Counted from the stretch's first letter, positions 12,969 to 23,848 are shown. The stretch is DNA of 64,000 nucleotides from Chitinophaga pinensis (GCA_945860705.1 CAMART010000001.1:119486-183485); one strand, 5' to 3'. Numbers and translations: made by a program. Notes: generated from the letters alone by a model not told the origin.

Positions 12969-15203
12969 ATGTTTCAAATAAAGAATACTGATTTTTGGAG
13001 TGTGTTTAAATTGTTTCAAAGAATCAATTTAGGCATTTTATTGTTTTTATTTATACTCTTCATATTGGTGAAAGTAGGTGCTTTTGGATATATGCCTGAT
13101 CTAGAAGAAATAAAAAATCCAACTAAAAATCTTGCCACTAATGTATACACTTCTGACTATGAACTTTTAGGTTCGTATTTTATACAAAACAGAACAGAGG
13201 TAAAATATGATGATCTTTCTCCTTGGTTAATAAAAGCCTTAGTAGCAACTGAAGATAAACGATTTTATGAGCATTGTGGTATCGATTTTAAAGGGATGTT
13301 TAGAGCGATTTTATTTTTAGGTACTCAAGGTGGTGGTAGCACGCTTACTCAACAAACTGCTAAAAATTTATTTTACGAAAATGAAGGACAAAATAAATTT
13401 CAACGCTTAATTCAAAAACTAAAAGAACAAGTTATAGCTATTCAACTTGAGAGAAATTTTAGTAAGGAAGAAATCATAGCGCTATACTTTAATACGGTTT
13501 CTTTTAACAATAATGCTTTTGGAATAAAGACTGCTGCAAAAACTTATTTTAACAAAAGTCAAAAAAAATTAACTGTAGAAGAAGCTTCTATGCTTGTGGG
13601 TATGCTCAAAGGCCCGTCGTTATACAATCCAAAAAGAAATCCAAAAACGACATTGAATAGAAGAAACACTGTAATAGAATTGATGCAAGAGCAAGAAATA
13701 TTGACTCTTGCTCAATCGGACTCCATAAAAAAAATAGCAATAAAGCTTGACTATAGAGGCAATAAAAGAGATGATGGATTGGGTACATTTTTTAGAGATC
13801 AATTATTTATCGATTTAAAAAAATGGACAGAAACACATAAAAAACCTGATGGCTCTAAGTATAGCATAAATACGGATGGTCTTCAAGTGTATACTACTAT
13901 CAACTATAAAATGCAACAATATGCCGAAGATGCAACAACCAGTCATTTGAAAAAAATGCAAACTCAGTTTTTTAGAGAATGGCGTGGTAAAGAACCTTGG
14001 AAAGCTACTGGCGACAGATCTAATCCAAAGTTGATAGATAAAATGATTAAAAAAACGGATGCATATAAAGAGTTACAAGCAAAAGGTTTAGACGAAAAAG
14101 AAATTCAAGAAGAACTCTCTAAAAAAAGAGCTATGACTATTTTTACTTGGGCTGGTGATAGAGATACGCAGTTTAGCATATATGATTCATTGAAATATTA
14201 TGCACAACAACTACAAACTGGATTTGTAGTGTTAGACCCAAGAGATGGAGCTATCAAAGCATGGGTAGGTGGTGCTGATTTTACCTACTCTCAAAACGAT
14301 CATGTACGTATAGGTACCAAAAGACAAGTAGGTAGTACCATGAAACCTTTTTTATATGCAGCAGCTATGGATAAGGGATTGACTCCTGAAAGCACCGTGC
14401 CTTATTCTTGTCCTCAAATACCTGGTGATGCTGAGTGGTGTCCAAAAGGTACTGGAAAATGGGCAGAAGGAGAAATGGTATCACTTCGTGAAGGATTGAA
14501 AGCATCTGATAACTTAATAGCAGCTCAAGTAATGAAAGAAGTTGGAGCAGCGGCTGTTGTGGCATTAGCAAAAAGATGTAATATTACTTCGCACCTAGAT
14601 GAAGTACCCGCATTAGCACTAGGTGTAAGCGATATCTCTGTGATAGAAATGGCCGGAGCATATACTGCATTTGCAAATAGAGGTATCTATTCAAAACCCT
14701 ACTATATAACCCGTATCACTGATAAAGATGGACATGTATTGGATGAGTTTTTCCCACAGCGCTCCAATGTACTGAGTGAAAAAACTGTATATCAAGTAGT
14801 GAGTATGATGCGTGGTGTAGTGACGGGTGGTACTGCCACATCACTAGGCAAAACTTATGGACTTAAAATGACTATTGCAGGTAAAACTGGTACCACACAA
14901 AGCAATACAGATGCGTGGTTTGTAGGATTCACTCCAGAGCTTCTCGGTATAGTGTGGGTAGGTTGTGATGAACCAAGTTCTAGATTTGCTACTACTGCTA
15001 GTGGACAAGGTGCTGTTGCAGCTATGCCTATTTGGGGTAAATTTTTCAGTAAAGCATATAGCGATAGAACTCTTAAACTCGATAGAAAAGCGAGCTTTAA
15101 AACACCTGAAGGATACACTTCTGATAGTACGGGAGTTCTGCGCTCTATATTTGCAGATACTGCCACAGTTTCCGAAAGTGCTGAAGACATAGTAGGTTTT
15201 TAG
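12969..15203 (+). CDS. mrcA: Penicillin-binding protein 1A (bifunctional transglycosylase/transpeptidase)
   Basis: 744 aa; GT51 motifs 'EDKRFYEHCGID','GGSTLTQQ'; transpeptidase 'STMKP', 'SDN', 'KTGTT'. Confidence 0.9.
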   Translation: MFQIKNTDFWSVFKLFQRINLGILLFLFILFILVKVGAFGYMPDLEEIKNPTKNLATNVYTSDYELLGSYFIQNRTEVKYDDLSPWLIKALVATEDKRFYEHCGIDFKGMFRAILFLGTQGGGSTLTQQTAKNLFYENEGQNKFQRLIQKLKEQVIAIQLERNFSKEEIIALYFNTVSFNNNAFGIKTAAKTYFNKSQKKLTVEEASMLVGMLKGPSLYNPKRNPKTTLNRRNTVIELMQEQEILTLAQSDSIKKIAIKLDYRGNKRDDGLGTFFRDQLFIDLKKWTETHKKPDGSKYSINTDGLQVYTTINYKMQQYAEDATTSHLKKMQTQFFREWRGKEPWKATGDRSNPKLIDKMIKKTDAYKELQAKGLDEKEIQEELSKKRAMTIFTWAGDRDTQFSIYDSLKYYAQQLQTGFVVLDPRDGAIKAWVGGADFTYSQNDHVRIGTKRQVGSTMKPFLYAAAMDKGLTPESTVPYSCPQIPGDAEWCPKGTGKWAEGEMVSLREGLKASDNLIAAQVMKEVGAAAVVALAKRCNITSHLDEVPALALGVSDISVIEMAGAYTAFANRGIYSKPYYITRITDKDGHVLDEFFPQRSNVLSEKTVYQVVSMMRGVVTGGTATSLGKTYGLKMTIAGKTGTTQSNTDAWFVGFTPELLGIVWVGCDEPSSRFATTASGQGAVAAMPIWGKFFSKAYSDRTLKLDRKASFKTPEGYTSDSTGVLRSIFADTATVSESAEDIVGF

Positions 15204-15225: not shown

Positions 15226-16461
15226 ATGATACAATACGAACGATTTTTTTTAGAGAATGGATTAGAAGTAATCATTCATACAGATAAAAGTACTCCACTC
15301 ATCACCGTAAATACCCTTTATAAAATTGGCTCTAGAGATGAAAGTCCTGATAAAACTGGTTTTGCGCATTTGTTTGAACACTTGATGTTTGAAGGTTCTG
15401 AGAATGTAGACGATTTTGATGAAGAACTCGAAAAAGCTGGTGGTGAAAACAATGCCTTTACAAGCAATGATATTACCAACTATTATATCACACTTCCTGC
15501 TCCTAATATTGAGACTGCTCTTTGGATAGAGAGTGACCGTATGAAATCTTTGTCTATCAATCAAGAAGCACTAGATATTCAAAAAAATGTAGTGATAGAA
15601 GAATTTAAAGAACACTATATCAATCAACCATATGGAGATACTTGGCATTTGCTTTCTGCACTTGCCTATAAAACTCACCCATATAGGTGGCCGACTATAG
15701 GTATAGACTTATCGCATGTAGCAGATGCAAAATTAGATACTGTTCAAGATTTTTTTGATACGTATTATGTTCCAAATAATGCAATACTCGTATTAGCTGG
15801 TAATATAGAAAAAGAGGATGCAAAAAAATTAGTTGAAAAATGGTATGGAGATATACCTAAAGGAAAAGATATCCATCGTAATATACCGATAGAAGAAAAA
15901 CAAGTAGCAGCACGTAAACTGATTCATACTGCAGATGTGCCTGTCAACTATATATACAAAGCTTATAAAATGTGTAATAGAATGGATAAAAACTATCAGG
16001 CAATTGACTTAATCAGCGATATACTTGGTAGTGGAGATTCTTCTAGGCTTACGCAAAAACTGGTAAAAGAAAAAAATATATTTAGTACTATCAATGCTTA
16101 CGTCACTGGCACGCTTGATGAAGGTTTGTTTGTGATAGATGCAAAAGTAGCTGATGGTATTTCTGTAGAAAGTGCAGATGAGGCTATTGTAAATTTATTA
16201 GATGAATTTTGTGCTACTCCTATAAGCGAATATGAACTACAAAAAGTAAAAAACCAAATAGAATCTTACAACGAACTCAATGATATAGATATACTCAATA
16301 GAGCAACTAATCTAGCATATTATTCTTATATGGGTGATGTCGATTTTATCAATACAGAAATCAATCAATATCTTTCGCTTACTCCTGAAACTATTCAAGC
16401 ACAAGCAAAAGAGCTTTTTAATAAAGAATATTGCAATACGCTTTGGTATTTGAAAGGGTAG
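15226..16461 (+). CDS. M16 (pitrilysin/insulinase) family peptidase
   Basis: 411 aa; inverted zinc motif 'HLFEHLMFEGS' (HxxEH). Confidence 0.85.
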   Translation: MIQYERFFLENGLEVIIHTDKSTPLITVNTLYKIGSRDESPDKTGFAHLFEHLMFEGSENVDDFDEELEKAGGENNAFTSNDITNYYITLPAPNIETALWIESDRMKSLSINQEALDIQKNVVIEEFKEHYINQPYGDTWHLLSALAYKTHPYRWPTIGIDLSHVADAKLDTVQDFFDTYYVPNNAILVLAGNIEKEDAKKLVEKWYGDIPKGKDIHRNIPIEEKQVAARKLIHTADVPVNYIYKAYKMCNRMDKNYQAIDLISDILGSGDSSRLTQKLVKEKNIFSTINAYVTGTLDEGLFVIDAKVADGISVESADEAIVNLLDEFCATPISEYELQKVKNQIESYNELNDIDILNRATNLAYYSYMGDVDFINTEINQYLSLTPETIQAQAKELFNKEYCNTLWYLKG

Positions 16462-16495
16462 TTTTTTTTGTGATATAGAAAATGACATCATAGTA

Positions 16496-16561
16496 TTAGT
16501 AAAAGTAATCTTGAAGATTTGTAAGAATAATTTTATATATTTGTAAAGTAAATGCGAAACA
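16496..16561 (+). repeat. Three direct repeats phased exactly 22 bp apart (TTAGTAAAAGTAAT / TTTGTAAGAATAAT / TTTGTAAAGTAAAT)
   Basis: Copies start at 16496, 16518 and 16540, read directly from the sequence, in the non-coding DNA just downstream of the M16 peptidase gene. Confidence 0.7.
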
Positions 16562-16604
16562 AGATATTACTAAAACCTTCGCCAATCTACCCAAAAATGG
16601 TATG

Positions 16605-16629
16605 ATAGGCGAAACTCTGTTTCGCCTAT
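16605..16629. repeat. Perfect 11-bp-stem palindrome ATAGGCGAAAC-TCT-GTTTCGCCTAT
   Basis: Read directly; lies at the transition from AT-rich to G/C-richer DNA on the left side of the R-M cassette; no T-run, so not a classical terminator. Confidence 0.85.
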
Positions 16630-16715
16630 ATATAAGTTACAAGCAAGTGTAGGACGACCGACAACTCGACAATTAACCGACAGAAAAAAAAGAAAATGCC
16701 AACGCTTCGCAAATT

Positions 16716-16779
16716 AAAAGAGCTGCAAGCCGATACACGAGCCAACGCTTTTGCAGCACATTTAATTTTGCCCAACCGC
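16716..16779 (+). repeat. Left flanking repeat modules B (16716-16740) and A (16741-16779) of the R-M cassette
   Basis: AAAAGAGCTGCAAGCCGATACACGA followed by GCCAACGCTTTTGCAGCACATTTAATTTTGCCCAACCGC; both have imperfect direct copies at 21254-21340. Confidence 0.8.
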
Positions 16780-16900
16780 ACCCAAAGCCCACCCACCACC
16801 CGACAAGTGGACGGTTGACAATTTGGAGGCAACTTTTGGCAGAAACGGAGTTAAAAAACTTAACTTTACGAACTCATAAATTAACAACAGAAAATAAGAA

Positions 16901-18664
16901 ATGAAGTTATACGAAACACTTGAAAAGCAACTTAAAAGAGAACCTAACTACGTTACCGACAGCGGAGAACTTAAAAAATGGGTTGTAATAAATAAAGCAC
17001 AGAATTATGATGCTGAACTTATTGGATTGTTGCTTGATGACAAGGAACTAAAAGCAAAATTCTTTCTTGACATTAAAGGCGTTTTAGTTTTCAACCAGTC
17101 ATTTTTTATTCAATTCTTAGAGCAAAAGAATTATTTGAATGACAGCTACACCGCCTACAAAAATAAAGTTGGTTTAACCATTGACGGTAAATTTTTAAAA
17201 CAACGTAACGAAGTTGCTCTGGTTTGGCCATTTAAGGATTGTGTTTTAGAGGGCGGTCAAAGCCGTGAAGAAGATAAACGGGAAGAAATATTTTTTAATG
17301 AAACACTTGCGCAAGACGAAATTACTCAACTTTTAGAGCCAAAGGTTTTAACTAATGCCAAACGCTACACATCCAAAGGCGAAAAACCACTTGAGAAATT
17401 TAACAGGAACAAAAACGGTATTATTACAGACAACCTAATTATAAAAGGGAACAACCTTCTAGGACTACATTCATTAAAAGAAGAATTTTATGGTCAAGTA
17501 AAGTTAATTTATATTGACCCGCCTTACAATACAGGAAATGATGGGTTTAATTATAATGATAGATTTAATCAGAGCACCTGGTTAACTTTTATGAAAAACA
17601 GATTAGAAGTTGCAAGACAATTATTGAGTGAGGATGGCGCAATATATGTTAACCTAGATTTCAATCAAGTACATTTTGCAAAAGTATTAATGGATGAAAT
17701 ATTTGGAAACGAGAATTTTCAACGAGAAATAATATGGCGTATTGGTTGGTTGTCTGGTTATAAAACTATAGATAAGAACTTTATTAGGAATCACGATAGC
17801 ATATTGTTTTATTCTAAAAACAATAAAAACCTAAATTTTATTAAGAAATATATTAATAATGAATCATTTAAACCTTTAGTAAAATACGAGAAAATAAAAG
17901 ATAAATTAACAGAATTAGGGTTGAACAGGCAACAACAAATAGATTTATTAAATTTTATAAATCACACAAATAGACCTGAAAAGTATCCAATTGAAGATGT
18001 TTGGAATGGAAATGAATATGACGATTTGAATAGTATTGCTATAGTTTCATTTTCAGGTGAGACTGTTTCTAAAATGCTAGGCACACCTGAATTAAAAGGA
18101 CAAAAATCTGAAAAATTAATACAAAGAATAATTGAAGCACATACAAACGAGAATGACATTGTCCTCGATTATCATTTAGGTACGGGGACTACTGCAGCGG
18201 TAGCAAATAAAATGAAAAGACAATTTATTGGAGTAGAACAAATGGATTATATAGAAACAATAGCTGTAGAGCGATTAAAAAAGGTGATTGAGGGCGAACA
18301 AAGTGGTATATCAAAAGCGGTAAACTGGACAGGTGGAGGAGAGTTTGTTTATTTTGAACTTAAAAAATCTAACCAGAACTTTATTGAACAAGTTGAATCT
18401 GCTAAAGATACAAAAACAGTATTGAAAATTTGGGAAGAGATGAAAACAAAATCTTTCCTCAATTACAATGTTGATTTACAAAAGCAAGAAGCACATATTG
18501 AAGAATTTAAGGCGTTGACTTTAGAAGAACAAAAACAACATTTGGTTGAGTTGTTAGATAAAAATCAATTGTATGTAAATCTATCATCGTTAAATGATAA
18601 AGACTTTATTGTTTCATCTGATGAGAAGAAAGTAACTGAGGATTTTTACCAAATAAAAAAGTAA
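16901..18664 (+). CDS. mod: Type III restriction-modification system methyltransferase (Mod; beta-class N6-adenine/N4-cytosine MTase)
   Basis: 587 aa. Motif IV 'IYIDPPYNTGNDGFNYNDRF' precedes motif I 'VLDYHLGTGTTAAVA', the beta-class order. It lies immediately upstream of a Res-type helicase-nuclease. Confidence 0.9.
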   Translation: MKLYETLEKQLKREPNYVTDSGELKKWVVINKAQNYDAELIGLLLDDKELKAKFFLDIKGVLVFNQSFFIQFLEQKNYLNDSYTAYKNKVGLTIDGKFLKQRNEVALVWPFKDCVLEGGQSREEDKREEIFFNETLAQDEITQLLEPKVLTNAKRYTSKGEKPLEKFNRNKNGIITDNLIIKGNNLLGLHSLKEEFYGQVKLIYIDPPYNTGNDGFNYNDRFNQSTWLTFMKNRLEVARQLLSEDGAIYVNLDFNQVHFAKVLMDEIFGNENFQREIIWRIGWLSGYKTIDKNFIRNHDSILFYSKNNKNLNFIKKYINNESFKPLVKYEKIKDKLTELGLNRQQQIDLLNFINHTNRPEKYPIEDVWNGNEYDDLNSIAIVSFSGETVSKMLGTPELKGQKSEKLIQRIIEAHTNENDIVLDYHLGTGTTAAVANKMKRQFIGVEQMDYIETIAVERLKKVIEGEQSGISKAVNWTGGGEFVYFELKKSNQNFIEQVESAKDTKTVLKIWEEMKTKSFLNYNVDLQKQEAHIEEFKALTLEEQKQHLVELLDKNQLYVNLSSLNDKDFIVSSDEKKVTEDFYQIKK

Positions 18665-18668
18665 TTCA

Positions 18669-21254
18669 ATGAGTTTTTTATACGAAACAGTAAAGGGTTA
18701 CTTTGGTGAAAGAACAATAAAGCAAACACCAGTTCCCAATTTTATAACCGATAATTTTAAACCTGGATTTGGTCAAAGACCTTATCAAATAGAATCGTTT
18801 CAGCGGTACATTCTTTGCCATACAGAAGATTTTGAAGGCAGACCAAAAAAGCCTTTTCACTTGTTGTATAATATGGCAACAGGAAGCGGAAAGACTTTAG
18901 TAATGGCTGGTTTGATGCTTTACTTGTATGAAAAAGGTTATCGGAACTTTTTGTTTTTCGTAAACTCAAACAATATTATCAAGAAAACGAAGGACAACTT
19001 TTTGAATCCACAGGCTTCAAAATATTTGTTCAATGATAAAATAGTAATTGACGGAAAAGAAGTTTACATAAAGGAAACAGACACCTTTGAAAGTGCTGAT
19101 GATAAAAACATAAATATCAAATTCACAACTATTCAGCAACTTCACATTGACTTAAACAACACCAAAGAGAACAGTGTTACTTATGAAGATTTTAAAGATA
19201 AAAAAATGGTGCTTATTGCTGACGAAGCGCATCATTTAAGTTCTGCGACTCGAAGTAATGGAGATTTATTTGGAAGCTGGGAAGGAACAGTTTTAGAAAT
19301 CCTCAATCAAAATTACGACAATATTCTTTTAGAGTTTACCGCAACATTAGATTACGGAAACTCAGAAATAGTGTCAAAGTACAAAGAGAAAGTTCTGTAT
19401 AGATACGACCTTGCTCAATTCAGAAAAGATAAATATTCTAAAGAAATAAATTTAATCAGGTCAGAATACAACCAAGATAATAGAATTATTCAAGCATTGA
19501 TTTTAAACCTTTATAGACAAGAATTAGCAACTGCAAATGGTATTAATTTAAAGCCTGTAATTCTTTTCAAGGCAAAGCGAACAGTTGCAGAATCACAACA
19601 AAATAAATTGAATTTTCACAAACTCATTGATAAACTTTCAAATCCAACCATTGAAAACATAAGGAGGAATTCTACAATACCAATAATAACTAAGGCATTT
19701 ACATTTTTTGATTCAATTGGATTAAATACTGGCGAAATAACAAGGAGAATTAAGAATCATTTTAAAGAAACAAATTGTTTAAGTGCAAATGAAACAGAAA
19801 CGACCGATAAAAAAAAGAAGGCTGAAGGAGAAAGAAGTGATGAGTTGCTTAACACACTAGAAAATGAAAACAATCCAATTAGAGCAATTTTTGCTGTGCA
19901 AAAATTGAACGAAGGCTGGGACGTTTTGAATTTGTTTGATATAGTTCGTTTGTATGAAGGTCAAAATACAGGTGGAACAAACACAACCGTAGGTGCAACA
20001 ACGCTTTCAGAAGCACAATTAATCGGACGAGGAGCAAGATATTTTCCTTTTGCATTAGAAGAAGGGCAAGACAAATACACAAGAAAGTATGATGACGACC
20101 AAGCCAATGATTTAAAAATACTTGAAGAACTTTATTACCATACAAAAGAGGACAGTCGATATATTTCGGAATTGAAGAAAGCACTTGTAGAATCAGGAAT
20201 TTACGAGGACGAAGATAAATTGGTAACAAAACAACTTACACTGAAATTAGACTTTAAGGAAACTGAATTTTATAAAACGGGGCAAGTTGTATTCAATAAA
20301 AAAGTTGAAAAAAGTTATAACAATGTAAAATCATTTGCTGACTTCGGAGTATCAAAACGAAACCTTGCCTATACTCTATCATCTGGAATTGGAAGAATCA
20401 CAGGTGTTTTCAATACTGAAGAAGAAACAACAACCGTCAAAATTGAAAGTAAAGACATCAAACTTTCAGCTATTCCAAAACACATTGTTCGTTTTGCTTT
20501 AGCACAAAATCCATTCTTTTACTTCGACAGTTTAGAAAGATATTTTCCCAATGTTGGTTCACTATCAAATTTCATTGACAGCACCGATTATTTAGGAAGT
20601 TTAGAAATTACATTTAATGGTTCAAAGACTAGACTTGGTGACATAACAAATAATGACTATTTACTTTCTATTCAAGGACTTTTACAAAATATTGAATCAG
20701 AAATAAAATCAAACTTGACAGAGTTTGAAGGTTCAGGCTACATCAAAGAATATGTTCACAAGGTTTTCAAAGACAAGGAAATCAAAGTTTACAAAGACAG
20801 CGAAAGAGCAGACGGCCAAGAAACACTTGTAGCAAATGAGCCTTGGTATGTTTACAATGCAAACTATGGAACAATTGAGGAAAAGGAATTTGTAAAACTG
20901 TTTCAAAGACGCTTTGAAGGACTTAAAGAAAAGTTCACTAACATTTACTTAATCCGTAACGAAAGAGAAATTAAAATTATAGACAAATTAGGCAGAGCAT
21001 TTGAGCCTGACTTTGTTTTATTCTGTAAACAGAAAAAAGGAAAAGAATTGACTTATCAAGTTTTCATTGAGCCAAAAGGTGCACACCTTATAGCCAACGA
21101 CAAGTGGAAAGAAGAGTTTTTAAAACAAATTAGAGAGGAAGAAAAGACAATCAAAATACACACAGACAATTATGTAATTACTGGAGTGCCTTTCTACAAC
21201 TATGCAAACGAAAACGAATTTAAGAAAACATTGGAGGACACATTAAAAATATAG
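18669..21254 (+). CDS. res: Type III restriction enzyme Res subunit (SF2 helicase plus PD-(D/E)xK nuclease)
   Basis: 861 aa. Walker A 'MATGSGKT', 'LIADEAHHL' (DEAH), helicase C 'QKLNEGWDVLNLFDIV','GRGARYFP'. C-terminal 'EPDFVLF...VFIEPKG' is a nuclease motif. 4-bp gap to mod. Confidence 0.9.
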   Translation: MSFLYETVKGYFGERTIKQTPVPNFITDNFKPGFGQRPYQIESFQRYILCHTEDFEGRPKKPFHLLYNMATGSGKTLVMAGLMLYLYEKGYRNFLFFVNSNNIIKKTKDNFLNPQASKYLFNDKIVIDGKEVYIKETDTFESADDKNINIKFTTIQQLHIDLNNTKENSVTYEDFKDKKMVLIADEAHHLSSATRSNGDLFGSWEGTVLEILNQNYDNILLEFTATLDYGNSEIVSKYKEKVLYRYDLAQFRKDKYSKEINLIRSEYNQDNRIIQALILNLYRQELATANGINLKPVILFKAKRTVAESQQNKLNFHKLIDKLSNPTIENIRRNSTIPIITKAFTFFDSIGLNTGEITRRIKNHFKETNCLSANETETTDKKKKAEGERSDELLNTLENENNPIRAIFAVQKLNEGWDVLNLFDIVRLYEGQNTGGTNTTVGATTLSEAQLIGRGARYFPFALEEGQDKYTRKYDDDQANDLKILEELYYHTKEDSRYISELKKALVESGIYEDEDKLVTKQLTLKLDFKETEFYKTGQVVFNKKVEKSYNNVKSFADFGVSKRNLAYTLSSGIGRITGVFNTEEETTTVKIESKDIKLSAIPKHIVRFALAQNPFFYFDSLERYFPNVGSLSNFIDSTDYLGSLEITFNGSKTRLGDITNNDYLLSIQGLLQNIESEIKSNLTEFEGSGYIKEYVHKVFKDKEIKVYKDSERADGQETLVANEPWYVYNANYGTIEEKEFVKLFQRRFEGLKEKFTNIYLIRNEREIKIIDKLGRAFEPDFVLFCKQKKGKELTYQVFIEPKGAHLIANDKWKEEFLKQIREEEKTIKIHTDNYVITGVPFYNYANENEFKKTLEDTLKI

Positions 21255-21340
21255 CCAACGCTTTTGGTAGCACATTTGCATTTTTTGCCAACGCAAAAGC
21301 CAAACAAAAAAATGCAAAAGAGCTACCAAGCCAACGCACC
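21254..21340 (+). repeat. Right flanking repeat modules A (21254-21294) and B (21316-21340) of the R-M cassette
   Basis: GCCAACGCTTTTGGTAGCACATTTGCATTTTTTGCCAACGC ... AAAAGAGCTACCAAGCCAACGCACC; same orientation as the left copies but in swapped module order. Confidence 0.8.
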
Positions 21341-21524
21341 AAGACACTGCAAACAATGGACAAAAGAGCATCGACAGAAAGAACACCAGCTTGTAACAGC
21401 ACCTACCCAAAAGGCGGGGTTTCGTGTTCCAAAGACAGTTTTGTGGGTAATCAAACATTAGTTTTTCAAATCAAGTTTTGTGGTAAAAGTCCCGCCCTTC
21501 GGGTAGCTGCAAACCGTCCATTCG

Positions 21525-21886
21525 GCGTAGTCTCTGACTACGCTGTGATGATAGTAAGTCTTTGACTTACATTTTAAAGCAAATATAAATCTAAAGATTT
21601 ATTATCGCAGTATCGTAGTCATGAGACTACGACAAATGAAGGCATTGGTATATATTGCTAGTCAGTGAAGACACTGACTAGGGCGAGTATATAAAGCATT
21701 TTGTTTTTGTTTATTATTTGCTAAGAGCAAAAATAATAAAAGTCACTCGGCTGGAGCCGAGCGACAGATTGAGGAGCAATGATGCTTCATGCCTCAGCAT
21801 TTCAATGTATTTGTAAAAAAATATATACAATTTTTATATAGCCCTGATAGAAGCAAGTATCCTGCTCGACGAAGGAGAGCAGATAC
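21525..21886. repeat. Array of about nine short G/C-containing stem-loops (REP-like palindromes)
   Basis: Stem-loops at 21525-21543, 21554-21570, 21587-21600, 21614-21631, 21658-21681, 21711-21739 (bulged), 21742-21765, 21771-21795 and 21857-21886. All were read directly from the sequence. Confidence 0.8.
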
Positions 21887-21942
21887 TGCGCATAGCAGGT
21901 AATAGCTCCAAATTTTATTATTTTACATATATAGTTATAAAA

Positions 21943-21978
21943 AAAACGAGTACTGAATTTTATATCAATACTCGTTTT
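21943..21978 (-). terminator. Rho-independent terminator of glmS (bidirectional-looking)
   Basis: AAAACGAGTA / TACTCGTTTT 10-bp stem, 26 nt downstream of the glmS stop, flanked by an A-run and a T-run. Confidence 0.7.
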
Positions 21979-22003
21979 TATATTTATTATTAATAATTAT
22001 TTT

Positions 22004-23848
22004 TTACTCTACAGTTACACTCTTTGCAAGGTTTCTTGGTTGGTCTACATTTTTGCCCAATCCTACTGCTATATAATACGATAATAGTTGTAATGGAATC
22101 ACTGAAAGTAAAGGACTGAATGACTCTTCTGTATCAGGTATTTCTATAACGTGTTCCGCTAGTGATTTTATAATATCATCTGCTTTAGTTACTATAGCTA
22201 TTACTCTACCTTTTCTTGCTACTACTTCTTGCACATTGCTAATGATTTTTTCATAAGCACTATGGTTGGTAGCTACAACCACTACTGGCATATTTTCATC
22301 TATCAAGGCTATTGGGCCGTGTTTCATTTCAGCTGCAGGATAGCCTTCAGCATGTATATAAGAAATCTCTTTCAATTTCAATGCGCCTTCTAGTGCTACT
22401 GGGAAATTATATCCTCTACCTAGGTATAAGAAATTGTGGGCATTTTTATATATCTCTGCTATCTTTTTTACTTGTTCGTTTGTAGAATCAATGATATGTT
22501 TTACTTTATCAGGAATTGTATCAAGTTCTATGATTAGTTGACGATACTTACTTTCTGTGATTTTTCCTCGCTTATAGGCAACATAAATAGCCATCATAGT
22601 AAGCACTACCACTTGAGCTGTAAATGCTTTTGTAGAAGCAACTCCTATTTCAGGGCCTGCATGTGTATATGATCCAGCATGAGTTTCACGTGGAATAGAA
22701 GAACCTACCACATTGCATATACCTATAATCGTTGCGCCTTTCTCTTTAGCTAATTTTATTGCTGCTAATGAATCTGCAGTTTCACCACTTTGCGAAATAG
22801 CTATCACCACATCATTTTCATTGATCACAGGGTTTCTATATCTAAACTCAGAAGCATACTCTACTTCTACTGGTATACGAGCTAAATCTTCAAAAAGATA
22901 TTCTGCTACCAATCCTGCATGCCAACTAGTACCACATGCAACAATTAGTATTCTATTTGCATTGATGATTTTATGTTCATATTCTTTTAGACCACCTAGT
23001 TTTAAAGTATTGTCTACAGCATTGAGTCTACCTCTCATACTATCTTTGATAGAACGTGGTTGTTCATGTATTTCTTTCAACATAAAATGCTCATAACCTC
23101 CTTTCTCTAGCATTTCAAGTTTAAGTTCTAACTCTTGGATATAAGGAGTTTTTTCTACATTCTGAATAGTTTTTAGCGTAAAGCCTCCATCTCTTTTTAT
23201 CACTACTACTTCTTCTTCACCTATATAAACTACGTTTTTAGTATATTCTACTATGGGAGTAGCATCACTTGCCAAAAAATATTCGTCTGTACCGATTCCC
23301 AATACTAATGGACTTCCTTTTCTAGCTCCATATAATGTATTTGGGTCGTTTCTTTCCATCACTACTATAGCATATGCACCTGTTACTTTATTGAGTGCTT
23401 CAAGTAATGCTTTTTCTAGTGAGCATTTTTCATTGTTTTGTATTTCTTCTATCAAATGCACCAACACTTCTGTATCCGTATCGCTATGAAAAACATGTCC
23501 TCTTTTAGTGAGTTCTTCTTTGATGACTGCGTAGTTTTCTATAATACCATTGTGTATGATAGCAATATTTTTATTGCCAGAATAATGGGGGTGTGCATTT
23601 ACGTCATTAGGTACTCCATGAGTAGCCCATCTTGTATGCCCCATACCTAAAGTGGAGTCTGTAGGTTTACCTTCTATAAAACTTTGTAAATCACTTACTT
23701 TCCCTTTAGTTTTGTATACGGTGATATCTCCCTCTTGCATGAGTGCAATACCAGCACTATCATATCCTCTATATTCTAGTCTTTGTAGTCCTTTTATTAC
23801 TATAGGACAAGCTTGGTTTTTACCTATATATGCTACTATACCGCACAT
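22004..23848 (-). CDS. glmS: Glutamine--fructose-6-phosphate aminotransferase (isomerizing)
   Basis: 614 aa; 'MCGIVAYIG' Ntn-Cys start, two SIS domains, C-terminal 'NLAKSVTVE'. Confidence 0.95.
   Translation of the reverse strand: MCGIVAYIGKNQACPIVIKGLQRLEYRGYDSAGIALMQEGDITVYKTKGKVSDLQSFIEGKPTDSTLGMGHTRWATHGVPNDVNAHPHYSGNKNIAIIHNGIIENYAVIKEELTKRGHVFHSDTDTEVLVHLIEEIQNNEKCSLEKALLEALNKVTGAYAIVVMERNDPNTLYGARKGSPLVLGIGTDEYFLASDATPIVEYTKNVVYIGEEEVVVIKRDGGFTLKTIQNVEKTPYIQELELKLEMLEKGGYEHFMLKEIHEQPRSIKDSMRGRLNAVDNTLKLGGLKEYEHKIINANRILIVACGTSWHAGLVAEYLFEDLARIPVEVEYASEFRYRNPVINENDVVIAISQSGETADSLAAIKLAKEKGATIIGICNVVGSSIPRETHAGSYTHAGPEIGVASTKAFTAQVVVLTMMAIYVAYKRGKITESKYRQLIIELDTIPDKVKHIIDSTNEQVKKIAEIYKNAHNFLYLGRGYNFPVALEGALKLKEISYIHAEGYPAAEMKHGPIALIDENMPVVVVATNHSAYEKIISNVQEVVARKGRVIAIVTKADDIIKSLAEHVIEIPDTEESFSPLLSVIPLQLLSYYIAVGLGKNVDQPRNLAKSVTVE

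Follow-up and report, generated by a model that had tools for sequence, protein, structure and literature searches.

A Type III restriction–modification pair between an M16 peptidase gene and glmS as the probable cargo of an integron-like cassette in Bacteroidota

What keeps two convergent housekeeping genes 5.5 kb apart? In a stretch of 64,000 nucleotides from Chitinophaga pinensis (GCA_945860705.1 CAMART010000001.1:119486-183485; hereafter the window, numbered from its first letter), which is AT-rich Bacteroidota DNA with a G+C content of 0.324, the genes of an M16 peptidase and of GlmS converge on an interval that holds only an intact Type III restriction–modification (R-M) pair, mod and res, and 439 bp and 749 bp of non-coding DNA. 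This layout had been described in an initial annotation of the window; the coordinates of the open reading frames (ORFs) agree with it, and all four genes are supported by Pfam and PADLOC matches. We find that positions 16637-21516 are probably a single discrete cassette, part of a site-specific recombination system of Bacteroidota that resembles integrons.

The first evidence comes from other genomes. Among 185,579 species representatives, the only close genome is the metagenome-assembled genome ELA637 (locus L001), whose GlmS is 87% identical to that of the window organism; no other GlmS match exceeds 72% identity. In L001 the M16 and glmS genes are likewise convergent, and they lie 12 bp apart, the counterpart of window positions 16425-21989 being missing. 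Conspecific contigs were found through the exact M16 and GlmS proteins in about 15 independent ENA and JGI samples (the identical M16 protein occurs on 16 contigs from several samples), and the flanks of the M16-glmS interval are 96-100% identical across these alleles. Three of the contigs (L090, L094 and L099, from two samples) carry an empty site, in which 16636/7 meets 21516/7 without intervening DNA and the sequence to either side is 100% identical, leaving an interval of 662 bp with the junction sequence TATATATAAG↓TCCATTCGGCG (↓ marks the crossover point here and below). The mobile unit is thus 16637-21516.

The same nucleotide is used by other DNA, with at least six alternative cargoes in conspecific assemblies. 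The alleles carry (a) mod-res, as in the window, (b) nothing, (c) two DUF488 genes and another gene, (d) a gene without an assigned function, (e) a cation-efflux gene and a DUF1295 gene, (f) an Exo_endo_phos gene and a DUF4357 gene, or (g) RCC1 and CotH proteins with secretion-sorting tails. Every cargo starts after the same G (G↓TTACAAGC, G↓TTGGGCGT, G↓TTATATGC, G↓TTATGTGC and G↓TTATGCCT), all junctions lie at G↓TT, and every cargo with an assembled right end closes in a related element of ~137 nt, ending ...AAA(C/T)CG↓, which resembles the attC recombination site of integrons. One allele (L102) has at least two such elements and is therefore an array. The unit is a genuine defence cassette that has sharp borders and is exchanged site-specifically; the view of the R-M pair as horizontally acquired, non-autonomous cargo in a variable spot is upheld by the 12-bp gap of L001 and by the empty and alternative conspecific alleles, and aligning this interval in relatives, a check proposed with that view, yields both empty and differently occupied sites.

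The non-coding flanks had been read as cargo boundaries of foreign, G/C-rich appearance, and both ideas hold in part. The inner 264 nt on the left and 262 nt on the right belong to the cassette, whereas all alleles of the species have the outer 176 bp and 487 bp as resident DNA. The cassette-internal non-coding ends have 43-44% G+C, compared with 27-33% in the resident pads, whereas the cassette as a whole is host-like (0.328 vs. 0.324), with a tetranucleotide distance at the 98th percentile of same-size windows. No further copies of the flank DNA occur within the window.

The position of the interval downstream of glmS had also suggested a decayed Tn7-like or other transposon. Insertion at attTn7 takes place ~25 bp downstream of glmS and creates a 5-bp target duplication. 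The unit does lie near glmS, and defence cargo is reported to be common in Tn7-like elements (PMC8649781). However, 487 bp separate the insertion point from the glmS stop, the surrounding ~10 kb contain no gene for tnsA-E, a transposase or an integrase, the best match between inverted ends is 11/20, so that terminal inverted repeats are missing, and there is no 5-bp duplication or any other target duplication beyond the shared G/T. A search for Tn7 ends found no repeated end motif except the octamer GCCAACGC, and that candidate was dropped. Nor is this a general glmS-linked hot spot, since mod/res or the terminal repeat occurs in 0 of 80 glmS loci of other Bacteroidota; M16, mod and res are likewise all missing near glmS in the 79 loci other than L001. 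We therefore give a transposon origin practically no weight. The statement that the locus has no integrase, transposase or tRNA gene stands: the 64-kb window contains no tRNA gene and no tyrosine recombinase (probed with IntI1 and XerD), and no transposase or integrase is among the precomputed Pfam matches for genes within ~10 kb on either side.

The right end of the cassette is an imperfect hairpin of 137 nt with the features of an attC site, i.e., R''-L''...L'-R' inverted repeats, AAC/GTT triplets, a conserved fold and a G↓TT crossover. Its stems are formed by GCACCTACCC/GGGTAGCTGC and by GGCGGGG/CCCGCC, the crossover follows G21516, and the predicted fold contains one conserved mismatch and a one-sided bulge of 4-5 nt (GGTTT on the bottom strand). 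In the window element, folding favours the bottom over the top strand (-28.7 vs. -19.0 kcal/mol), and the bottom strand is the more stable one in four of four conspecific cassettes. Across the four sequences, 11 of 20 pairs show compensatory changes. In an alignment of 117 copies, which was fitted to the model, 95.5% of the cells are paired, compared with 73.5% after shuffling and 25-42% when slid; 19 of the 20 stem pairs covary, changing on both sides, and the AAC/GTT triplets are nearly invariant, with their pairs present in 102-112 of ~113 copies. Rfam gives no match at the attC-like elements. The loop of the window element contains two TTTTGTGG repeats. At 21436-21452 and 21473-21492, in the same columns in all copies, two or three direct repeats (A/T)TTTGTG(G/C)T are seen; since the loops of canonical attC sites are, to our knowledge, not conserved, these repeats may be protein-binding sites.

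Integron cassettes are defined by a circular form whose single complete site is cleaved between G and TT. In the window element, the R'' box is the reverse complement of the first bases of its own cassette, (G)TTACAAG, as expected for such a circle. The four conspecific cassettes give the R''/start pairs CTTGTAAC/GTTACAAG (window), CACATAAC/GTTATGTG, GGCATAAC/GTTATGCC and GTGTATAAC/GTTATTCAC. For bacterial cassettes lying between two elements, this box rule holds at six or more of seven positions in 53 of 70 cases, compared with 2.7% for shuffled partners, and in a control the R'' of an element matched the start of the following cassette at the random level.

A covariance model built from the four conspecific copies showed that the element forms a family. 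A pattern scan of metagenome contigs gave 149 model matches at 80 loci, and a profile search over all fetched loci found 218 copies at 131 loci. At least two copies are present at 53 loci, in all 53 of which they are co-oriented, with a median spacing of ~1 kb; these bacterial arrays have 61 ORFs on the strand of the element and 10 on the opposite strand.

The same pattern scan on IMG/VR gave 189 model matches at 80 loci, on contigs that PHROG matches (major head protein, primase, DnaB-like helicase, Dda-like helicase) mark as real phages. The box rule holds for 66 of 111 phage cassettes vs. 4.5% in controls. These cassettes are smaller than the bacterial ones (median 562 bp), and their ORFs lie mostly opposite the element (91 vs. 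8 on the same strand). Matches to the element were also found in the cultured Flavobacterium phages vB_FspS_hemulen, sniff and snork. In vB_FspS_hemulen6-1, the phage examined in detail (L351, 2.7-9.9 kb), ~13 elements lie on one strand and the genes on the other, the latter comprising four orphan DNA methyltransferase genes, a helix-turn-helix (HTH) gene and small ORFs. No recombinase homologue was found in hemulen, sniff or snork. A study of these Flavobacterium phages reports that plating efficiency went along with whether a specific methyltransferase was present; nowhere does its text use the words integron, hairpin, palindrome or variable region (PMC7077304). [quoted passage not shown] The phage arrays found here are alike in having attC-like sites and methyltransferase cargo; they differ from the reported ones in that one repeat family links host chromosomes and phages, in the predominance of ORFs opposite the element, and in the smaller cassettes. 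The cultured Flavobacterium Lillamyvirus phages are not mentioned in the searched passages of PMC9892861.

Could the islet have been swapped by homologous recombination alone, the 137-nt elements being repetitive extragenic palindromic (REP)-like or terminator repeats with no role in recombination? Such exchange would be easy between alleles with flanks 96-100% identical, and the res gene of one conspecific contig (L092) is partly mosaic, with 65 differences within 545 bp. However, this explanation leaves unexplained why every cargo has the same G↓TT start, why the first 7-10 nt of a cargo are complementary to its own terminal repeat, at the far end, rather than to that of its neighbour, and why the same elements recur in unrelated genomic contexts and in phages. 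We regard it as highly improbable.

The cassette reading calls for a recombinase, and some arrays have one beside them. Tyrosine recombinase ORFs were found at array loci six times among ~147 metagenome loci and four times (two identical) among 120 viral loci. They carry PF13495 and PF00589, the NCBIfam model that fits them best is NF040815, "XerA / integron integrase", and the integron integrase profile TIGR02249 matches them in two stretches, below its cut-off. The closest solved structures are XerA, at 177 bits, and then VchIntIA, at 141 bits in two stretches; homologues in Flavobacterium, Salinimicrobium and Gramella bear the NCBI name "site-specific tyrosine recombinase/integron integrase". 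When five array-linked recombinases were aligned with IntI1, the IntI-specific insert of ~31 aa was missing, as it is in XerD. Cury et al. do not count a recombinase near attC sites as IntI if it has no IntI-specific region (PMC4889954). Long forms of the recombinase possess an extra N-terminal alpha/beta domain of ~70-100 aa (a confident AlphaFold2 prediction) and lie upstream of the array in the same orientation, whereas short forms are divergent from it. Between the recombinase stop and the start of the first cassette, at ...ATAA..AG↓TT, lie 30-100 nt at L174, L145, L230 and L133, and the box rule is obeyed there; at L230, one element lies 9.5 kb downstream of the recombinase homologue. Homologues at ~50% identity were considered as markers of arrays and rejected, L228 and L229 being array-free.

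Near short recombinase genes at L157, L167 and L203, the box GTTGAACTAA/TTAGTTCAAC recurs ~60 nt upstream, and the adjoining attC-like element faces either way (L157 vs. L167), which hints at inversion or at a dedicated integrase-proximal site.

These recombinases also bear on whether the unit is an ordinary integron cassette, with the arrays being CALIN remnants or single attC sites lacking integron integrases (SALINs), a true IntI encoded elsewhere in these genomes and the Xer-like recombinases mere bystanders. In favour of this, attC cassettes have exactly this site architecture, G↓TT crossover and box rule, IntI is documented to give rise to SALINs inserted at GWT/GTT sites of the genome (bioRxiv 10.1101/2022.09.11.507474), and a predicted attC of a Polaribacter phage is reported to recombine with attI1 (PMC9892861). 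However, all 10 array-locus recombinases and that of L230 belong to one family intermediate between Xer and IntI, without the IntI insert in five of five aligned, and with the divided, sub-threshold TIGR02249 match. In addition, the first cassette begins right after the recombinase gene at four platforms, with the box rule obeyed, and canonical integrons are reported to be nearly absent from Bacteroidetes (PMC9024848). An ordinary integron is unlikely, though less so than homologous exchange alone.

For the integron-like cassette that we favour, the following mechanism may be proposed. The free circular form would contain one complete site of ~137 nt, i.e., R'' CTTGTAAC, stems, loop, stems and R' G↓TTACAAG, with the circle junction ...GCTGCAAACCG↓TTACAAGCAAGTG..., or GGGTAGCTGCAAACCG↓TTACAAGCAAGTGTAGG. 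A tyrosine recombinase acting in trans would join this site with the M16-glmS landing site ...GTTTCGCCTATATATAAG↓TT..., cutting between G and TT, so that the integrated cassette starts with TTACAAG and ends with ...AAACCG. The cassette site would most likely be active as a folded single (bottom) strand, like the attC of integrons. The reverse reaction would restore the empty site, which is present in the population, and other cassettes, single or arrayed, would use the same insertion point. As for the cargo, Mod would methylate DNA, and Res, with its superfamily 2 (SF2) ATPase and PD-ExK nuclease, would cut DNA that is unmodified. The cassette has its own upstream region, so no external cassette promoter should be needed, and the hairpin modules at both ends may be insulators or terminators, or accessory recombination elements.

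Several points weigh against this reading. First, the 64-kb window contains no recombinase to which movement of the cassette could be assigned, and the screened array loci hold just 10 recombinase ORFs, plus the L230 platform. Second, recombinase homologues at ~50% identity occur in L228 and L229 with no such arrays nearby. Third, the array recombinases do not have the IntI-specific domain that contacts the extrahelical bases of attC in canonical integrons, and the mechanistic likeness to integrons therefore rests on analogy. Fourth, the landing pad is not an attC-like element and gives no profile match, and its similarity to attI-like sites extends over ~15 nt. Fifth, the pair counts come from the model-fitted alignment. 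Finally, within the species, alleles could spread by homologous recombination through their identical flanks, with no site-specific step.

Table 1. Features of the locus in window coordinates
Feature	Position	Strand	Remarks
PBP1a gene	12969-15203	+	
M16 peptidase gene, housekeeping flank	15226-16461	+	PF00675, PF05193
Left pad, resident	16462-16636	+	98-100% identity among the empty allele and every filled one
Mobile gene cassette (probably integron-like), 4,880 bp	16637-21516	+	TTACAAG...AAACCG
Generic cassette 5' module	16637-16800	+	homologous modules at the 5' ends of unrelated cassettes
Predicted promoter/leader of the mod-res operon	16799-16900	+	with TTGACAAT
mod, Type III modification methyltransferase, 587 aa, intact	16901-18664	+	PF01555, PF12564; PADLOC MTase_III 624 bits
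res, Type III restriction subunit, 861 aa, intact	18669-21254	+	PF04851; PADLOC REase_III 458 bits
Generic cassette 3' module	21254-21386	+	recurs just upstream of the attC-like site in other cassettes
attC-like site, 137-nt imperfect hairpin	21387-21516 (model match to 21523)	+	covariance model R1, 133.7 bits
R'' box	21390-21397		CTTGTAAC
Right pad, resident	21517-22003	+	96-100% identical in empty and filled alleles
glmS, housekeeping flank	22004-23848	-	Pfam SIS and GATase domains; 87% identity to L001
DUF4270/BamH-like gene	beyond glmS		

The left pad (Table 1) ends in a hairpin, formed by ATAGGCGAAAC (16605-16615) and GTTTCGCCTAT (16619-16629), followed by ATATAAG, with the crossover after G16636. 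As judged from its sequence, this pad is a candidate attI-like landing site: its junction resembles the sites 3' of the recombinase genes of complete platforms (L145, GGCGCCCATAAGTAAG↓TT; L133, GGGTCCTATAAGTAAG↓TT; window, TTCGCCTATATATAAG↓TT), the window pad consisting of the hairpin and then TATATAAG↓TT. A decayed attC in the left pad was also considered; ACCTTCGCCAATCTACCCAAAAATGG at 16573-16601 looked right by eye, and nhmmer on the pads gave no match even at E = 100. A recombinase pseudogene in either pad was rejected too (best tblastn E = 0.19). Both pads are absent from L001, and no homologue of the right pad occurs in any other fetched locus. Within the right pad, a terminator scan marks a terminator-like stem on the minus strand at 21765-21742, and a hairpin at 21931-21990 lies just after the glmS stop. 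Further right-pad hairpins were seen, a long one at 21510-21647, followed by others at 21660-21685, 21700-21740 and 21742-21765. A Flavo-1-like (RF01705) match lies at 21836-21906 (+), ~100-170 nt beyond the glmS stop and opposite in strand to glmS. Its 36.6 bits (E = 3e-6 on 511 nt) fall short of the gathering score of 42; the conserved outer sequence is well matched. A known RNA family as the explanation of the interval was discarded, Rfam being silent at the cassette elements and this sub-threshold match in the resident pad being the only one in the interval.

The non-coding DNA inside the cassette includes two modules. Five copies of the octamer GCCAACGC are present in the 64-kb window, where chance would give 0.23, and all of them lie in the two flanks, each of which forms a related imperfect hairpin. 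The 5' module comprises the rest of the R' box (TTACAAGCAAG), a TAGGACGACCGAC...CGACAGAAAA tract, GCCAACGC at 16698 and 16741 and the C-rich run CCCAAAGCCCACCCACCACCC, with a C/G-rich run cccaaagcccacccaccacccgac at 16782-16805; its hairpin (16711-16728/16751-16768) is kept by seven compensatory pairs. Homologues are present in L152, L145 (two), L203, L133, L161, L194, L121 and L230. The 3' module has GCCAACGC at 21254, 21287 and 21330, and its hairpin (21264-21286/21307-21329), which follows the res stop codon, is kept by six compensatory pairs; homologues occur in L194, L152, L145 (two), L216, L203, L164 and L125, and after res in L097. Both hairpins keep a conserved AGAG/CACA mismatch, and the two modules co-occur in the same cassettes. 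Cassettes with modules carry a BanI-type Type II R-M system, a Type IIG-like methyltransferase-specificity fusion, an HTH gene with an N6 methyltransferase gene, a Type I R-M system, a Zorya-like four-gene set and one secreted protein. The modules may form a portable expression or insulation unit (a 5' hairpin with a TTGACAAT-type promoter and a 3' terminator-like hairpin), or they may be accessory recombination sites.

The Zorya-like cassette, at L145 3760-10697 (-), is 7.3 kb long, lies between two attC-like elements and shares both hairpin modules, 5' and 3', with the window cassette. Its set consists of MotA/ExbB-like, EH_Signature and SNF2-Mrr proteins, whose domains were read, and a 240-aa ORF.

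The genes themselves have the features of Type III R-M systems of the EcoP15I/EcoP1I type. Mod has the N-terminal domain PF12564, the N6/N4 methyltransferase domain PF01555 and DPPY at residue 206, and Res has GSGKT at 72 and DEAH at 185 of an SF2 helicase and a C-terminal PD...ExK motif of an endonuclease; mod precedes res with a gap of 4 nt, and neither has an internal stop. The PADLOC REase_III match covers profile positions 24-859 of 873, and the Pfam matches of Res include HI_1054-type families. A central region of Mod (17604-18154) is divergent from close relatives, as expected, from its sequence, of a target-recognition domain. No simple-sequence repeat for phase variation was found in mod or res; phase variation of mod was rejected on this ground, the frameshift of L091 lying outside any repeat tract. 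In that conspecific contig, a 1-nt deletion and a substitution (window-equivalent 17804-17806) split mod into 310 and 247 aa, which may reflect an inactivated allele or an assembly error. In L092, also conspecific, all of the 65 differences to the window over 4.5 kb fall into the mosaic part of res (window-equivalent 20282-20826), near the contig end, suggesting a recombinant 3' part of res or a chimeric assembly.

Hundreds of Res homologues exist at 82-98% identity, although GlmS of the same organism has no match above 72% besides L001; these homologues lie in different contexts, and DNA homology ends at the gene borders. The window flanks are missing beside the mod/res homologues of L081-L088, whose DNA is homologous only from the start of mod to the stop of res. 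The exceptions are L097, which keeps the first 41 nt of the 3' module, to the contig end, and L081, which keeps 13 nt of the left end. In L081 (Res 97% identical), these 13 nt, GTTACAAGCAAGT at 85-97, equal the left end of the window cassette and directly follow what appears by eye to be a tRNA gene of which the contig end leaves the 3' part and which ARAGORN does not call; no attC-like site follows res there. Many close Res homologues (P0001-P0120) are on contigs of 4-7 kb, about the size of the cassette, which fits assembly breaks at repeated cassette ends. In close Type III relatives from other Bacteroidota that are not in cassettes (Res 82-87% identical), an HTH gene lies upstream of mod, whereas the window copy is compact and in a cassette. 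In L082 and L083, which have this HTH gene, RhuM and, in one case, 23S-rRNA-IVP genes lie between mod and res. The 40 nt at 16799-16838 are 85% identical to the DNA upstream of the HTH-mod-res operon in L082, the TTGACAAT-TTGAG part being also common to other cassette 5' modules. This match suggests, at the level of sequence, that the window mod-res is a compact derivative that has lost the HTH gene.

How close, then, is the system to known ones? Repeats of the Vibrio cholerae repeat (VCR) type (~120-130 nt) have site sequences that are highly similar within a lineage, as here. Like integron cassettes, the unit is discrete, ends in an imperfect palindromic site with AAC...GTT and a G↓TT crossover, has a start that complements its own R'', occurs in co-oriented arrays with ~1-kb spacing, and has a bottom strand that folds better; sedentary chromosomal integrons also count defence systems among their cargo (bioRxiv 10.1101/2024.07.02.601686). 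While similar in design, it differs from integrons in several respects. First, the array recombinases have no IntI-specific domain, and some have the additional N-terminal domain of ~70-100 aa and a co-oriented position upstream. Second, in the predicted folds the R and L stems are separated by a one-sided bulge of 4-5 nt, whereas attC has a two-sided unpaired spacer. Third, TTTGTG repeats are conserved in the element loop. Fourth, many cassettes are large and multi-gene (4.9-kb Type III R-M, 7.3-kb Zorya-like, ~9.5-kb Type I R-M) and have their own hairpin modules. Fifth, the hosts are Bacteroidota, the group with almost no reported integrons (PMC9024848). Like a SALIN or CALIN, the window has one cassette and one attC-like site at G↓TT outside any array and no integron integrase or other recombinase in 64 kb; unlike in these, at least seven different cassettes or arrays of a single species share one insertion nucleotide and the pad resembles attI-like sites, which argues for a dedicated platform without an integrase rather than random attG insertion. 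The cassette works like an integron cassette, and it is the integrase that places it outside the canonical integrons, the window being recombinase-free and the array recombinases having no IntI insert.

A broader picture may be put forward tentatively, with less confidence than the assignment of the window cassette. Bacteroidota and their phages may share an integron-analogous cassette system with a recombinase intermediate between Xer and IntI, without the IntI domain, and with 137-nt attC-like hairpins, in which host arrays store full-size Type I, II and III R-M and Zorya-like systems and phage arrays store, in inverted orientation, small genes and orphan methyltransferases, the window cassette lying at an integrase-less platform that turns over in the population. 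In the literature searched, coverage of which was incomplete, we saw no account of such a system shared by Bacteroidota and phages.

The cassette reading accounts for all of the "odd" non-coding DNA of the window. If the array recombinases run the arrays, cassette capture through folded hairpins would be older, or more often reinvented, than thought, and searches with IntI profiles would miss a whole branch of such systems. Through the arrays, complete defence systems pass from strain to strain at one single nucleotide, and since the same site family surrounds variable methyltransferase genes in cultured Flavobacterium phages, the exchange of defence and counter-defence between host and phage becomes testable in a culturable system.

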